Assembly (NCBI RefSeq): GCF_056746865.1
Contig: NZ_CM163382.1
Direction: 5' to 3' (one strand)
DNA length: 64,000 nucleotides
Shown here: in pieces, positions 11,769 to 55,715 of the stretch
How positions within the stretch are numbered: the first letter of the stretch is position 1
Layout: each line of letters opens with the position of its first letter
Made by a program: the position numbers and the translations under genes
Notes under the pieces: generated by a model
Told to the model about the DNA's origin: nothing
Seen by the model: only the letters and a program-made list of their open reading frames with translations
The model's database searches: none

Positions 11769-12596
11769 GTGGCGCGGATAAACCGTATTTCGATCACGCT
11801 CTGTGCTTTACTTTTTACCACCCTGCCTTTAACGCCTATGGCCCATGCTTCAAAGCAAGCCAGGGAGAGTTCTGCTACTACTCATATCACCAAAAAAGCA
11901 GATAAAAAGAAAAGCACGGCAACCACCAAAAAGACCCAGAAAGCCAGCCAGAAAACAGCGAAAAAAGCCGCCAGTAAAAGTACGATCAAAAGCAAAACCG
12001 CTTCTTCCGTTAAAAAATCTTCCATTACCGCTTCTAAAAACGCCAAAACTCGCAGCAAACACGCCGTCAATAAAACGGCCTCAGCCAGCTTTACCGAAAA
12101 GTGTACCAAACGTAAGGGCTATAAATCGCATTGTGTGAAAGTCAAAAATGCCGCGTCAGGAACTCTTGCCGACGCGCACAAAGCGAAGGTGCAAAAAGCC
12201 ACGAAAGTGGCAATGAATAAACTGATGCAGCAAATTGGTAAGCCATATCGTTGGGGTGGCAGCTCACCGCGTACCGGTTTTGATTGCAGCGGCCTGGTTT
12301 ATTACGCTTATAAAGATTTGGTGAAAATTCGTATTCCGCGTACGGCGAATGAAATGTATCACCTGCGCGATGCAGCGCCAATCGAACGTAGTGAACTGAA
12401 AAACGGCGACCTGGTCTTTTTCCGTACTCAGGGACGCGGTACAGCCGATCATGTCGGCGTGTATGTCGGCAACGGCAAATTTATTCAGTCACCGCGCACG
12501 GGTCAGGAAATTCAAATCACTTCTCTCAGTGAAGACTACTGGCAGCGCCACTATGTTGGCGCTCGTCGGGTAATGACCCCAAAAACACTTCGCTAA
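11769..12596 (+). CDS. mepH: NlpC/P60 peptidoglycan DD-endopeptidase MepH
   Basis: GTG-initiated ORF; signal peptide, Lys/Ser/Thr-rich linker, C-terminal NlpC/P60 domain (GFDCSGLVYYAY); exact start uncertain. Confidence 0.85.
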   Translation: MARINRISITLCALLFTTLPLTPMAHASKQARESSATTHITKKADKKKSTATTKKTQKASQKTAKKAASKSTIKSKTASSVKKSSITASKNAKTRSKHAVNKTASASFTEKCTKRKGYKSHCVKVKNAASGTLADAHKAKVQKATKVAMNKLMQQIGKPYRWGGSSPRTGFDCSGLVYYAYKDLVKIRIPRTANEMYHLRDAAPIERSELKNGDLVFFRTQGRGTADHVGVYVGNGKFIQSPRTGQEIQITSLSEDYWQRHYVGARRVMTPKTLR

Positions 12597-12723
12597 AACT
12601 TTACCCTGTTGTTACGGCAACAGGGTAAGTTCATCTTTTGTCTCACCTTTTAATTTGCTACCCTATCCATACGCACAATAAGGCTATTGTACGTATGCAA
12701 ATTAATAATAAAGGAGAGTAGCA

Positions 12724-13305
12724 ATGTCATTCGAATTACCTGCACTACCATATGCTAAAGATGCTCTGGCACCGCACATTTCTGCGGAAACCATCGAGTA
12801 TCACTACGGCAAGCATCATCAGACTTATGTCACTAACCTGAACAACCTGATCAAAGGTACCGCGTTTGAAGGTAAATCACTGGAAGAGATTATTCGCAGC
12901 TCTGAAGGTGGTGTATTCAACAACGCAGCTCAGGTCTGGAACCATACTTTCTACTGGAACTGCCTGGCACCGAACGCGGGTGGCGAACCGACTGGAAAAG
13001 TCGCTGAAGCTATCGCCGCATCTTTTGGCAGCTTTGCCGATTTCAAAGCTCAGTTTACTGATGCAGCGATCAAAAACTTTGGTTCTGGCTGGACCTGGCT
13101 GGTGAAAAACAGCGATGGCAAACTGGCTATCGTTTCAACCTCTAACGCGGGTACTCCACTGACCACCGATGCAACTCCGCTGCTGACCGTTGATGTCTGG
13201 GAACACGCTTATTACATCGACTATCGCAATGCACGTCCTGGCTATCTGGAGCACTTCTGGGCGCTGGTGAACTGGGAATTCGTAGCGAAAAATCTCGCTG
13301 CATAA
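12724..13305 (+). CDS. sodB: Iron superoxide dismutase
   Basis: 193-aa [23 protein letters not shown]..., Fe/Mn SOD signature DVWEHAYY. Confidence 0.97.
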
Positions 13306-13327
13306 TAACTGATGGCAAATGCAACAT

Positions 13328-13387
13328 TGCCTGATGCGCTTCGCTTACCATACCAACTCGGATGAAGCGTTAACACTGCATCCGGCA
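13328..13387. repeat. Degenerate REP/BIME-like palindromic element pair
   Basis: TGCCTGATGCGCTTCGCTTACC... and its partner ...GCATCCGGCA resemble the REP consensus (GCCTGATGCG / GCCGGATGCG) in inverted orientation. Confidence 0.4.
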
Positions 13388-13416
13388 AGATAAATCGCAC
13401 GTTGCCAGCAACTGTA

Positions 13417-13447
13417 ACGCAGAAGGTTATCCTTCTGCGTTTTTATT
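13417..13447 (+). terminator. Rho-independent terminator downstream of sodB
   Basis: AACGCAGAAGG-TTAT-CCTTCTGCGTT hairpin followed by TTTTATTT. Confidence 0.7.
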
Positions 13448-13450
13448 TAA

Positions 13451-14620
13451 TTAGCTGTTGGCAACGCAAACTGTTTCAGGTTGTTTTCTGGCTGACATAA
13501 ACACCAGCAATAATGCCAGTCCCGCGACAATCGCCCCCATCACCGGCACAAAACTGTATCCCAGCCCAGCGGAAATTACCGCACCACCAGCAGCTGCTCC
13601 CAGAGCATTTCCAAGATTAAAGGCACCAATATTGACTGATGAAGACAGACCTGGCGCTTCACTGGCGACACGCATCACGCGCATCTGTAACGGCGGTACG
13701 ACCGCAAAGGTTGCAGCTCCCCACACCACCATGCTAATAGCTGCGCCGAACTCATTGCGGGCCAGGAACGGGATTGCCAGCATAATCACCATCAGCAGCA
13801 ACAAAAAGCCTTTCAACGTGCCGTTAACTGAACGATCTGCCAGTTTGCCGCCGAGATAGTTACCGATAGAGAATCCGACACCAATCAGCACCAGCATTGC
13901 CGTGACGAACACCGGCGTTGCGTGGGTAATGCTTTGCAGTACCGGAGAGATATAGGTGTAGAGGGTAAACATTGCACCAGCTCCCAGTACCGTCGTCAGC
14001 AATGCAGACAGCACCTGCGGACGCATTAATACCGCCAGCTCTTTTTTCACTTCAGGTCGCGCCCCTGCGCCACCTTTAGGTAATGAGAAGAACAGACTTA
14101 CCATTGAAATCACGCCCAGCCCCGCCGTTGCCAGAAATGACATCCGCCAGCCGATGGTTTCGCCCAACCAGGTCGCTGCCGGAACGCCACCGATATTTGC
14201 CAGGGTTAACCCCATAAACATAGTGGCAACTGCGCTGGCCTGTTTATGTTTTGGCACCACGCTTGCGGCCACAACTGAACCCAAACCAAAAAATGCTCCG
14301 TGATTCAGGCTGGTCAAAATGCGTGAAAGCATGAGAGTCATATAATCCGGCGCGATGGCGGAAAGTACGTTGCCGAGCGTGAAAATCGCCATCAGGAAAA
14401 TCAACGCACTGCGGCGGGCACGATGAGAAAGTAGAAGCGTCATCAGCGGCGCGCCCACCATTACGCCAACTGCATAGGCACTGATTAACATTCCGGCAGC
14501 GGGAATCGAGACATCCACACCGCGCGCAATGACGGGCAATAAGCCCATTGGCGAGAACTCCGTTGTCCCGATACCAAACGCGCCAATCGCCAGCGCCAGC
14601 AACGGATAGTTAATTTTCAT
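13451..14620 (-). CDS. ydhP: MFS transporter
   Basis: 389-aa ORF with 12 predicted TM segments. Confidence 0.9.
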   Translation of the reverse strand: MKINYPLLALAIGAFGIGTTEFSPMGLLPVIARGVDVSIPAAGMLISAYAVGVMVGAPLMTLLLSHRARRSALIFLMAIFTLGNVLSAIAPDYMTLMLSRILTSLNHGAFFGLGSVVAASVVPKHKQASAVATMFMGLTLANIGGVPAATWLGETIGWRMSFLATAGLGVISMVSLFFSLPKGGAGARPEVKKELAVLMRPQVLSALLTTVLGAGAMFTLYTYISPVLQSITHATPVFVTAMLVLIGVGFSIGNYLGGKLADRSVNGTLKGFLLLLMVIMLAIPFLARNEFGAAISMVVWGAATFAVVPPLQMRVMRVASEAPGLSSSVNIGAFNLGNALGAAAGGAVISAGLGYSFVPVMGAIVAGLALLLVFMSARKQPETVCVANS

Positions 14621-14785
14621 GCCTTATCTCCACCTCTTCGCGTCATTACGCGATATTCATTAAAGTGGCGAAAGCATGACAGCAATCACAAAAAAATGAA
14701 AATAACAAAAAGAGAAAACACTTTTGCCATTTTGCTAACAAACAGGAAGGAGATGCGAGGGAGAACGCGCTCCCTCGAGAGGAAA

Positions 14786-14875
14786 TCAGTGCAGCGCGGC
14801 AGTCAAACCCACGGCCACGATCAAACCGAGGACGATAATCGTTGTTACCAGTGAAAATTTAAGGTCGGTGCTCAT
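14786..14875 (-). CDS. ynhF: Small membrane protein (29 aa)
   Basis: Hand translation of the minus strand gives MSTDLKFSLVTTIIVLGLIVAVGLTAALH with a stop; not in the ORF track because it is short; sits where K-12 ynhF lies between ydhP and purR. Confidence 0.7.
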   Translation of the reverse strand: MSTDLKFSLVTTIIVLGLIVAVGLTAALH

Positions 14876-15113
14876 CAAGTTTTCTCCTTTTTTATTACCA
14901 CACAAAAAGTGATATTACGCATTTTTACACACTGTGATGAAAAAATCTCCCGTCATTTATAATGATAAGTGTTTTTACCACTTCCCCTTTTCGTCAAGAT
15001 CGGCCAAAATTCCACGCTTACACTATTTGCGTACTGGCCATTGACCCCTTCCTGACGCTCCGTGTCGTTTTTCCGGCGTACCGCAACACTTTTGTTGTGC
15101 GTAAGGTGTGTAA

Positions 15114-15129
15114 AGGCAAACGTTTACCT
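15114..15129. promoter_or_regulatory. PUR box (PurR operator) in the purR leader, consistent with autoregulation
   Basis: AGGCAAACGTTTACCT, a 16-bp near-palindrome matching the PurR consensus ACGCAAACGTTTTCNT, 45 bp upstream of the purR ATG. Confidence 0.55.
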
Positions 15130-15173
15130 TGCGATTTTGCAGGAGCTGAAGTTAGGGTCTGGAGTGAAATGGA

Positions 15174-23765: not shown

Positions 23766-23842
23766 GCGTTCATAGCTCAGTTGGTTAGAGCACCACCTTG
23801 ACATGGTGGGGGTCGTTGGTTCGAGTCCAATTGAACGCACCA
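23766..23842 (+). tRNA. valV: tRNA-Val (anticodon GAC)
   Basis: 77-nt cloverleaf GCGTTCATAGCTCAGTTGGTTAGAGCACCACCTTGACATGG...TGAACGCACCA; anticodon GAC; encoded CCA. Confidence 0.97.
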
Positions 23843-23846
23843 TCCT

Positions 23847-23923
23847 GCGCCCGTAGCTCAGTTGGTTAGAGCACCACCTTGACATGGTGGGGGTCGGTGG
23901 TTCGAGTCCACTCGGACGCACCA
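23847..23923 (+). tRNA. valW: tRNA-Val (anticodon GAC), with C4 opposite A69 in the acceptor stem
   Basis: 77-nt cloverleaf GCGCCCGTAGCTCAG...CTCGGACGCACCA, 4 bp after valV; 5' strand GCGCCCG against 3' strand CGGACGC. Confidence 0.93.
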
Positions 23924-24030
23924 GATTTTCTTAATCTGGTCTTCTCCTTTTTCCCTCTGTTTCTTCTCTGTATCCAATACGTTAAAAGATTTACACTGTC
24001 TTCGTATGCGTTATCAGAAGGAGAATCGCT

Positions 24031-24336
24031 ATGGCAACTTTGTTACAACTTCATTTTGCTTTTAATGGCCCATTTGGCGACGCAATGGTTGAGCAGCTTG
24101 AACCGCTTGCTGAGTCGATTAATCAGGAACCTGGTTTTCTGTGGAAGGTATGGACAGAAAGTGAAAAGAACCACGAAGCCGGTGGGATCTACCTTTTTAC
24201 TGATGAAAAAAGCGCCCTTGCCTATCTGGAAAAACATACTGCCCGACTGAAAAATCTCGGCGTTGAGGAAGTTGTCGCCAAAGTTTTCGATGTCAATGAG
24301 CCACTTAGTCAAATCAATCAGGCAAAACTCGCCTGA
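24031..24336 (+). CDS. ydhR: Putative monooxygenase (Dabb/ActVA-Orf6-like)
   Basis: 101-aa ORF, recognised as YdhR. Confidence 0.88.
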
Positions 24337-42004: not shown

Positions 42005-42113
42005 AGAAAACCCTTAAGTCTGTGCGACACAGGCTTAAGGGTTTCTACCCCATCCGGCGCTTATCTCCGGCACTCTCAGTGGCTTAGCTCTTGAAGGGGC
42101 GATAAGAATAATC
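42005..42113 (-). ncRNA. rydB: Small RNA RydB region (approximate) with its terminator hairpin
   Basis: K-12 rydB lies between sufA and ydiH on the minus strand; a 17-bp near-perfect hairpin (42007-42044) is followed on the minus strand by TTTTCTTATTT; exact 5' end not determinable from sequence. Confidence 0.4.
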
Positions 42114-46406: not shown

Positions 46407-47519
46407 ATGGTAAATGTTCGTCAGCCCAGGGATGTCGCACAAATTCTGCTTTCGGTGCTCTTTTTAGCCATCATGATTGTGGCATGTCTGTGGATTGTAC
46501 AACCCTTTATTCTCGGCTTTGCATGGGCTGGTACGGTGGTTATCGCCACCTGGCCGGTATTGTTACGTTTGCAAAAGATCATGTTTGGTCGCCGGTCTCT
46601 CGCCGTTCTGGTGATGACGCTGTTATTAGTGATGGTGTTTATCATCCCTATTGCCTTGCTGGTTAACAGTATCGTCGACGGCAGCGGCCCGCTAATTAAA
46701 GCCATTTCCAGCGGTGACATGACGTTACCCGATCTGGCGTGGCTTAATACCATTCCGGTGATTGGCGCGAAGCTGTATGCAGGCTGGCACAACTTGCTGG
46801 ATATGGGGGGGACGGCGATCATGGCAAAAGTCCGTCCTTATATTGGCACCACCACCACCTGGTTCGTTGGGCAGGCGGCGCATATCGGGCGCTTTATGGT
46901 GCATTGTGCGCTGATGCTTCTCTTCAGCGCCCTGCTGTACTGGCGCGGTGAACAAGTGGCGCAAGGCATTCGCCATTTTGCAACCCGTCTGGCAGGCGTT
47001 CGTGGAGATGCCGCCGTGCTGCTGGCGGCACAAGCTATCCGCGCGGTGGCGCTGGGTGTTGTGGTGACAGCGTTAGTACAGGCAGTGCTTGGCGGTATCG
47101 GCCTCGCCGTATCCGGCGTACCTTATGCAACTTTGCTCACGGTGTTAATGATCCTCTCCTGCCTTGTCCAGCTTGGACCGTTGCCGGTACTGATTCCGGC
47201 GATTATCTGGCTCTACTGGACTGGCGATACCACCTGGGGAACGGTATTGTTAGTGTGGAGCGGTGTGGTTGGCACGCTGGATAACGTCATCCGCCCAATG
47301 TTAATTCGCATGGGTGCCGATTTACCGCTGATCCTGATTCTCTCTGGCGTTATTGGTGGTTTGATTGCTTTCGGGATGATCGGCCTGTTTATTGGTCCGG
47401 TTCTGTTAGCCGTTTCCTGGCGTCTTTTTGCCGCGTGGGTGGAAGAAGTCCCACCGCCGACTGACCAACCGGAAGAAGTTCTCGAAGAACTTGGCGAAAT
47501 CGAGAAACCGAATAAGTAA
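46407..47519 (+). CDS. ydiK: AI-2E family transporter (PerM-like)
   Basis: 370-aa GTG-initiated hydrophobic ORF. Confidence 0.9.
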   Translation: MVNVRQPRDVAQILLSVLFLAIMIVACLWIVQPFILGFAWAGTVVIATWPVLLRLQKIMFGRRSLAVLVMTLLLVMVFIIPIALLVNSIVDGSGPLIKAISSGDMTLPDLAWLNTIPVIGAKLYAGWHNLLDMGGTAIMAKVRPYIGTTTTWFVGQAAHIGRFMVHCALMLLFSALLYWRGEQVAQGIRHFATRLAGVRGDAAVLLAAQAIRAVALGVVVTALVQAVLGGIGLAVSGVPYATLLTVLMILSCLVQLGPLPVLIPAIIWLYWTGDTTWGTVLLVWSGVVGTLDNVIRPMLIRMGADLPLILILSGVIGGLIAFGMIGLFIGPVLLAVSWRLFAAWVEEVPPPTDQPEEVLEELGEIEKPNK

Positions 47520-47704: not shown

Positions 47705-47809
47705 ACGGTTATAAATCAACATATTGATTTATAAGCATGGAAATCCCCTGAGTGAAACAACGAATTGCTGTGTGTAGTCTTTGCCCATCTCCCACGATGG
47801 GCTTTTTTT
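47705..47809 (+). ncRNA. rprA: Small regulatory RNA RprA (rpoS translational activator)
   Basis: ACGGTTATAAATCAACATATTGATTTATAAGCATGGAAATCCCCTGAGTGAAACAACGAATTGCTGTGTGTAGTCTTTGCCCATCTCCCACGATGGGCTTTTTTT matches the known 105-nt RprA, including the terminator hairpin and U-run. Confidence 0.93.
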
Positions 47810-47947
47810 TAACATTTTTCCGCTTCGCTACCTCGCCCCTCACGCTTTCCAATAATGTTGCACAAGATACTGTGACTCTCTTCAAGCCGTCAGCAGGCTG
47901 ATAATGTTATTTATATTTTATTGTTTATTTCATGCAGCCATTACACG

Positions 47948-54119: not shown

Positions 54120-55715
54120 ATGAAACCTGTAAAACCACCTCGTATTAATGGACGAGTGCCGGTCCTGTCGGCACAGGAAGCGGTGAATTATATTCCCGAC
54201 GAAGCAACACTTTGTGTGTTAGGCGCTGGCGGCGGTATTCTGGAAGCCACCACGTTAATTACAGCTCTTGCTGATAAATATAAACAGACTCAAACGCCAC
54301 GTAATTTATCGATTATTAGTCCGACAGGGCTTGGCGATCGCGCCGACCGTGGTATTAGTCCGCTGGCGCAAGAAGGTCTGGTGAAATGGGCATTATGCGG
54401 TCACTGGGGACAATCGCCGCGTATTTCTGATCTCGCAGAACAAAATAAAATTATTGCTTATAACTATCCACAAGGTGTACTTACACAAACCTTACGCGCC
54501 GCCGCAGCCCACCAGCCTGGTATTATTAGTGATATTGGCATCGGAACATTTGTCGATCCACGCCAGCAAGGCGGCAAACTGAATGAAGTCACTAAAGAAG
54601 ACCTGATTAAACTGGTCGAGTTTGAAAACAAAGAATATCTCTATTACAAAGCGATAGCGCCAGATATTGCCTTCATTCGCGCTACCACCTGCGACAGCGA
54701 AGGCTACGCCACTTTTGAAGATGAGGTGATGTATCTCGACGCATTGGTTATTGCCCAGGCGGTGCACAATAACGGCGGTATTGTGATGATGCAGGTGCAG
54801 AAAATGGTTAAGAAAGCCACGCTGCATCCTAAATCTGTCCGTATTCCGGGTTATCTGGTGGATATTGTGGTGGTCGATCCGGATCAAACCCAACTGTATG
54901 GCGGTGCGCCGGTTAACCGCTTTATTTCTGGTGACTTCACCCTTGATGACAGCACCAAACTTAGCCTGCCCCTAAACCAACGTAAATTAGTTGCACGGCG
55001 CGCATTATTCGAAATGCGTAAAGGCGCGGTGGGGAATGTCGGCGTCGGTATTGCTGACGGCATTGGCCTGGTCGCCCGGGAAGAAGGTTGTGCTGATGAC
55101 TTTATTCTGACGGTAGAAACAGGTCCGATTGGCGGAATTACTTCACAGGGTATCGCCTTTGGCGCGAACGTGAATACCCGCGCCATTCTGGATATGACGT
55201 CCCAGTTTGATTTTTATCACGGTGGTGGTCTGGATGTTTGTTATTTGAGTTTTGCTGAAGTCGACCAGCACGGTAACGTCGGCGTGCATAAATTCAATGG
55301 CAAAATCATGGGCACCGGTGGATTTATTGATATCAGTGCCACTTCGAAGAAAATCGTTTTCTGCGGCACATTAACTGCGGGCAGTTTAAAAACAGAAATT
55401 ACCGACGGCAAATTAAATATCGTCCAGGAAGGACGGGTGAAGAAATTTATTCGGGAACTACCGGAAATTACTTTCAGCGGAAAAATCGCTCTCGAGCGAG
55501 GGCTGGATGTTCGTTATATCACTGAGCGCGCAGTATTCACACTGAAAGAAGACGGCCTGCATTTAATCGAAATCGCCCCTGGCGTCGATTTACAAAAAGA
55601 TATTCTCGACAAAATGGATTTCACCCCAGTGATTTCGCCAGAACTCAAACTGATGGACGAAAGATTATTTATCGATGCGGCGATGGGTTTTGTCCTGCCT
55701 GAAGCGGCTCATTAA
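54120..55715 (+). CDS. ydiF: Fused alpha/beta acyl-CoA:acetate CoA-transferase
   Basis: 531-aa ORF, family I CoA-transferase. Confidence 0.9.
   Translation: MKPVKPPRINGRVPVLSAQEAVNYIPDEATLCVLGAGGGILEATTLITALADKYKQTQTPRNLSIISPTGLGDRADRGISPLAQEGLVKWALCGHWGQSPRISDLAEQNKIIAYNYPQGVLTQTLRAAAAHQPGIISDIGIGTFVDPRQQGGKLNEVTKEDLIKLVEFENKEYLYYKAIAPDIAFIRATTCDSEGYATFEDEVMYLDALVIAQAVHNNGGIVMMQVQKMVKKATLHPKSVRIPGYLVDIVVVDPDQTQLYGGAPVNRFISGDFTLDDSTKLSLPLNQRKLVARRALFEMRKGAVGNVGVGIADGIGLVAREEGCADDFILTVETGPIGGITSQGIAFGANVNTRAILDMTSQFDFYHGGGLDVCYLSFAEVDQHGNVGVHKFNGKIMGTGGFIDISATSKKIVFCGTLTAGSLKTEITDGKLNIVQEGRVKKFIRELPEITFSGKIALERGLDVRYITERAVFTLKEDGLHLIEIAPGVDLQKDILDKMDFTPVISPELKLMDERLFIDAAMGFVLPEAAH

Follow-up and report, generated by a model that had tools for sequence, protein, structure and literature searches.

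The stretch of DNA analyzed here, 64 kb long and referred to below as the window, belongs to an Escherichia coli chromosome. Its intergenic region 13306–13450 lies between two convergent genes, sodB and ydhP, and contains, within the sodB 3′UTR, an extragenic pair of repeat units at 13328–13387 that is the subject of this report (Table 1). The names of both genes, as well as the presence of a sodB intrinsic terminator downstream of the repeat pair, had been proposed in a preliminary description made from the sequence alone. The names are borne out by the open reading frames and by the RefSeq annotation of identical DNA, and the terminator by a terminator scan, in which 13416–13441 is the sole terminator-like site on the plus strand downstream of the sodB stop codon. 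All 11 pairs of its stem are invariant in nine sequences compared. The repeat pair was also considered as an intrinsic terminator in its own right, and this was ruled out, with no T run following position 13387. As for the terminator U tract, the window has TTTTTATTT where all other alleles examined, that of E. albertii included, have TTTTTGTTT; the difference is a single base at position 13445, which is A in the window and G in the other alleles seen.

Table 1. Features of the sodB–ydhP region, with positions counted from the first letter of the window.
Feature	Position	Strand	Basis or remarks
sodB CDS (Fe superoxide dismutase)	12724–13305	+	ORF; identical DNA named sodB in RefSeq E. coli genomes
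sodB stop codon TAA	13303–13305	+	
REP-bearing insert, ~105 nt, long imperfect palindrome	13309–13414		Among sampled genomes in Escherichia only
Left flank arm, outside REP head	13310–13322	+	Pairs with 13397–13410; helix of 11 pairs, 98.7% of cells paired
Left unit, decayed short Z-type REP (GCCTGATGCGCTTCGCTTACCATACCAAC)	13329–13357	+	24/30 to short Z consensus
Right unit, decayed Y-type REP (TGCCGGATGCAGTGTTAACGCTTCATCCGAGTTGG)	13353–13387	−	25/35 to Y consensus; palindromic core 13359–13384
Right flank arm	13397–13410	+	Pairs with 13310–13322
sodB intrinsic terminator and T tract	13416–13448 (hairpin 13416–13441)	+	Terminator scan; 11-bp stem, 4-nt loop
ydhP CDS (MFS transporter), convergent with sodB	13451–14620	−	ORF; RefSeq annotation

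Several other elements were seen in the window. In Rfam, the sodB 5′ leader (12649–12753, plus strand) matches SodB_thermometer (RF02775) at a level below the threshold (31.4 bits, E = 0.0013; gathering score 98), and a terminator-like hairpin of 13 pairs, followed by a T-rich tail, is found at 12600–12629 (plus strand), directly 3′ of mepH (11769–12596) and upstream of the sodB promoter region. The MepH protein is 265, 271, or 275 residues long across strains with identical SodB (L093–L102), which suggests a length polymorphism, with the Lys/Ser/Thr-rich N-terminal part as its candidate location. At the gathering level, Rfam families are matched by STnc550 at 14783–15173 (minus strand, between ydhP and purR), rydB at 42040–42100 (minus strand), RprA at 47705–47812 (plus strand), two tRNAs at 23766–23920 (plus strand), and the HPnc0260 antisense family at 23885–24047 (minus strand), the last overlapping the second of the two tRNA genes.

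The ends of the repeat pair coincide with the heads of two REP units, TGCCTGATGCG (13328–13338, plus strand) and TGCCGGATGCA (13377–13387, minus strand). The units are arranged tail to tail, with their tails overlapping at 13353–13357, so that the linker measures 0 nt. The REP head lies 23 nt from the sodB stop codon, and 28 nt separate the pair from the terminator. For the assignment of the units, the three E. coli REP consensus sequences given in the methods of PMC11208160 were aligned to both strands of the window over its full length; one of the three, the short Z consensus of 29–30 nt, is the z1 of PMC8266576. The best match to the short Z consensus anywhere on either strand of the 64 kb is the left unit (score 18, with the runner-up at 10), and the Y consensus is best matched by the right unit, on the minus strand, with a score of 15 (runner-up 13). 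Among 200 first-order Markov simulations of the window, which served as the null, none reached the Z score and three reached the Y score, whereas the joint tail-to-tail score of 33 was reached by none, the null having a mean of 16 and a maximum of 22. The position of the pair between convergent genes is one shared by ~60% of REPs (bioRxiv 10.64898/2026.03.23.713779).

A scan of the whole window against Rfam at the gathering level returned nothing in the sodB–ydhP intergenic region, and an E-value scan of 12500–13600 gave in that region a single sub-threshold match, to the REP325-derived naRNA4, over positions 13359–13384 of the right unit (E = 5.4; 15.9 bits against a gathering score of 59.5). 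Further REPs were sought in the 64-kb window and none were found. Two candidates were rejected, namely 47108–47121, with a score of 13 to the Y consensus that falls inside the null range, and 55696–55706, which falls in a coding sequence.

In K-12 MG1655, the same position is occupied by two units that are both close to consensus, a short Z (GCCTGAAGCGCTACGCTTATCAGGCCTAC, 29/30) and an inverted Y (30/35), with a spacer of 12 nt between them. The sodB element of K-12 is listed as REPv128ab in Table 2 of PMC10100675; neither the type of element nor the locus, catalogued as REP128, is new. The K-12 RefSeq annotation has no repeat_region features over 50 kb, so its silence on REPs is uninformative. 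Over its whole length, the window element can be aligned with the K-12 intergenic region carrying REP128a-b, sharing with it the position, both flanks, the downstream terminator, and the order of a short Z on the plus strand followed by a Y on the minus strand. The two alleles differ in their tails, in the spacer, and in the folding of the individual units. E. coli REPs are defined as imperfect palindromes preceded by GTAG (PMC8266576), and the K-12 pair has GTAG in both units (GTAG/CTAC tails), as well as separate stem-loops of −12.8 and −16.2 kcal/mol. In the window, in contrast, the spacer is missing and GTAG is absent from both units, being replaced by GTTG in the left one (the reverse complement of 13354–13357) and by CCAA in the right one (13353–13356). 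The heads of both units are intact. The right unit retains a palindrome with 13-nt arms (13359–13371 and 13372–13384) that are 85% complementary and fold at −9.8 kcal/mol, whereas the left unit has kept its head and lost its 3′ arm and CTAC tail, so that it does not form a stem of its own (−1.6 kcal/mol). In other strains, the decayed units carry additional scattered SNPs, such as a change of GCC to ATC in the head of the left unit.

The locus is present in 5,425 of the 5,426 complete E. coli genomes that were searched with queries specific for each form of the element, and three alleles can be told apart. The decayed 2-unit form seen in the window is the majority allele (~3,719 genomes); one strain with this form, 118UI, has 100% identity to the window over 13250–13500. 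A 4-unit form is found in 1,350 genomes; since the intact pair as such occurs in 1,706, about 356 have the K-12-like intact 2-unit form. The 4-unit form consists of an intact short Z, an intact Y, a decayed long Z (29/37), and a decayed Y (28/35); its linker is 12 nt, as in K-12, and its last unit is the homologue of the right unit of the window. Comparison of the K-12 locus (L001, 1961–2121) with a 4-unit locus (L098, 1283–1516) shows that removal of the 73 nt lying between two copies of a 9-nt direct repeat, CCGCATCCG, converts the 4-unit allele into the K-12 allele without a single mismatch over 152 nt, and at the sequence level the junction is that of a clean single-step deletion. Between the window-type and the 4-unit allele, the difference amounts to 89 nt, one Z–Y period and also the distance between two ACGCGGAT repeats, plus 6–11 substitutions, so the former is not a recent derivative of the latter. 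The 2-unit forms would have arisen from an ancestor with four units through deletions between repeats of the same orientation, although an ancestor with two units is also conceivable. In the 4-unit form, the divergence between the two periods is too great for a recent duplication.

The natural target of IS621 is the 11-nt ATCAGGCCTAC, with a CT core, located within REP elements (PMC11208160; PMC1525189). The K-12 and 4-unit alleles match this target in 11/11 positions, while the closest match in the window, ACCATACCAAC in the tail of the left unit, agrees in 7/11 and has its core changed from CT to CA. In strain K99B, an element of the IS621 family resides inside the intact short Z REP of a 4-unit allele, inserted at ATCAGGCCT^AC, with junctions ATCAGGCCT|IS...CT|ACGCGG and CT at both of them (L003, about 146–1414). 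This insertion is independent support for the identity of the element as a REP. Interruptions of the region are found in ~5/5,425 genomes.

Outside of E. coli, a 2-unit form is present at the same place in E. albertii, with a left unit nearer to the consensus (26/30) than that of the window. No REP follows sodB in Citrobacter werkmanii, Citrobacter sp., Enterobacter cloacae, or Pseudocitrobacter faecalis; in these genomes, the sodB stop codon is followed within ~10 nt by ACGCAGAAGG..CCTTCTGCGT, the homologue of the E. coli terminator, which is thus ancestral. Among the matches listed, the outgroups included one Escherichia other than E. coli, namely E. albertii, and no Salmonella, Shigella, or E. 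fergusonii, while an exact-protein look-up returned E. coli-type alleles only. Within this sample, the REP-bearing palindromic insert would have entered between the sodB stop codon and the ancestral terminator in an ancestor of E. coli and E. albertii.

The characterization of the feature in the preliminary description, as an old and degenerate REP/BIME remnant made of two imperfect palindromic units in opposite orientation, is borne out. Formal alignment to the Y and Z consensus sequences gave significant similarity (24/30 and 25/35, with a joint score reached in 0/200 simulations), and its identity as a REP remnant is further supported by orthology to the intact K-12 pair and by the IS621 insertion in the REP of an intact allele. 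The decay relative to the consensus is evident from the comparison with 29/30 and 30/35 in K-12, and its age is supported by the similar 2-unit form in E. albertii and by the absence of the insert from Citrobacter, Enterobacter, and Pseudocitrobacter. The opposite orientation and the REP similarity hold for both units, Z on the plus strand and Y on the minus strand, but a palindrome of its own is found in the right unit only.

In RNA of the sodB sense, the two units are predicted to pair with each other at −21.3 kcal/mol, and the whole insert, including the flank arms, forms one long imperfect hairpin at −31.2 kcal/mol. The full 3′UTR folds at −49 kcal/mol, with z = −5.0 relative to shuffled sequences, a figure that includes the terminator. 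All nine 2-unit sequences compared, that of E. albertii among them, retain the hairpin fold, with 97% of cells paired. A covariation test on the same nine sequences was not above shuffles (142/500), and the alignment contains a single compensatory pair (G–C to A–U), as well as several one-sided changes that give G–U pairs. The fold of the minus strand is about as good as that of the plus strand, without asymmetry.

As for the 3′ end of the transcript, Term-seq data for K-12 place a plus-strand end at 1736114, in the U tract of the terminator, which by our own arithmetic is 3 nt beyond the terminator stem. This position is the sole plus-strand 3′ end listed between mepH and ynhF, appearing in both lists that contain ydhP, and no 3′ end is located at the REPs in these tables (PMC7815308 supplement). 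By analogy, we infer that the sodB mRNA of the window allele has the same 3′ end as in K-12, at the terminator. The suggestion that the remnant might still affect the stability of the sodB mRNA 3′ end is not favored, in view of the location of the K-12 end at the terminator and of the lack of significant covariation. Genome-wide, mRNA half-lives are not longer with terminal REPs (bioRxiv 10.64898/2026.03.23.713779). A search of the literature for an sRNA derived from the sodB 3′UTR, or for REPs together with sodB, found nothing relevant beyond the REP128 listing. REPs within ~15 nt of a stop codon can reportedly stall terminating ribosomes, a finding attributed to Liang, Rudd and Deutscher (Mol Cell 2015), although this mechanism probably does not apply to the REP of sodB, with 23 nt between the stop codon and the REP head.

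Taken with considerable confidence, the reading that accounts best for the locus is that of a decayed BIME allele, consisting of a short Z and an inverted Y arranged tail to tail in the sodB 3′UTR, orthologous to REP128a-b, immobile, and near neutral. After the entry of the insert, deletions between same-orientation repeats would have produced the 2-unit forms. In the window allele, GTAG, the left stem, and the IS621 target are gone. From the loss of all three, we infer that it has become an immobile, drifting fossil. Such a fossil would be transcribed as part of the sodB mRNA, its units pairing into an imperfect hairpin (about −21 kcal/mol, or −31 kcal/mol with the flanks), while transcription would end 28 nt downstream, at the terminator, where the K-12 end has been mapped. 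The most that could then be expected of the fossil is a second, weaker obstacle to 3′-to-5′ exonucleases once the terminator hairpin has been breached. Its present role is most likely close to neutral. Weak selection on the RNA structure of the 2-unit hairpin may nevertheless operate, a possibility left by the presence of the hairpin in every 2-unit variant (97% paired) and by the one-sided changes that yield G–U pairs.

A stronger version of the latter idea, in which the 2-unit hairpin is a selected RNA element of the sodB 3′UTR, acting as a stabilizer, an RNase barrier, or a docking site and tuning sodB, perhaps also ydhP, appears quite improbable to us. The 3′UTR does fold far better than its shuffles, with the terminator counted in, and the consensus fold extends to E. 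albertii, its changes comprising the compensatory pair and the G–U substitutions described above. Expression is also higher for convergent genes separated by a REP, however canonical that REP is (bioRxiv 10.64898/2026.03.23.713779), an observation that likewise weighs against the fossil being near neutral. However, covariation does not exceed that of shuffles, and two inverted copies of one repeat pair with each other by descent, so the conserved fold does not show selection. The nearly equal folding of the two strands likewise gives no indication that the sodB-sense RNA is under selection. In addition, 31% of E. coli genomes have a very different structure at this place, other genera have none, and the 3′ end in K-12 maps to the terminator rather than to the hairpin.

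Still less likely, indeed very improbable, is that the pair remains an active REP/BIME, serving as a substrate of TnpA-REP, a site for DNA gyrase or other REP-binding proteins, or a target of insertion sequences. Both heads are intact and the right unit still forms a stem-loop, but GTAG is absent from both of them, and for the E. coli TnpA-REP this motif is essential, with no mutation of it tolerated (PMC8266576), which argues against mobility. The left unit, moreover, is unable to fold alone, the core of the IS621 target is broken, and SNPs accumulate in the units.

The insert extends beyond the REP pair. Inverted symmetry runs ~20 nt past the heads of both REPs, and the insert is flanked by AACTG as a direct repeat of 5 nt, at 13307–13311 and 13410–13414; in E. 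albertii, the flank arms pair in another register. The insert may originally have been a longer palindrome, or else the 5-nt repeat is there by chance. That the likeness to REPs is itself accidental, or that an unrelated MITE-like palindrome with AACTG as its target-site duplication lies at this place, is scarcely credible, since the symmetry past the heads and the flanking repeat, which would suit such an origin, stand against a joint score that none of the 200 simulations reached and near-consensus K-12 REPs at the same position, while a 5-nt repeat noticed post hoc is weak evidence and the equivalent bases in E. albertii belong to the inverted repeat.

Like the BIMEs and REPINs built of Y, Z1, and Z2 units, as these are defined in PMC8266576 and PMC2817692, the decayed allele combines two REPs of different type in inverse orientation, is extragenic, and lies between convergent genes, and its copy number at sodB–ydhP varies between strains. 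It differs from them in having no GTAG and no linker, in the loss of one stem, and in showing no sign of present mobility. With REP325/naRNA4 (Rfam RF02564), a 3′UTR array that acts as a terminator and stabilizer in yjdMN, the element shares a REP-derived hairpin located in a 3′UTR. REP325, however, consists of canonical units in multiple copies, and transcripts end at the array itself (bioRxiv 10.64898/2026.03.23.713779), whereas sodB has a separate intrinsic terminator, to which the 3′ end maps in K-12.

Among the intergenic repeats of E. coli, REP/BIME elements are the most common, and their polymorphism from strain to strain is well known, so the element described here is ordinary and matters little when taken alone. 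It does provide a clean example of REP decay, in which both heads persist without the GTAG tails and with one of the two stems lost. We also consider it possible, although unlikely, that the three alleles represent a natural regulatory polymorphism that sets the stability of the sodB mRNA, ydhP read-through, or both, according to lineage; if this were true, strains would differ in their Fe-SOD output without any change in promoter or coding sequence. In any case, the three alleles form a natural series in the 3′UTR of a well-studied mRNA, one that could be used to examine REPs located upstream of a strong terminator.
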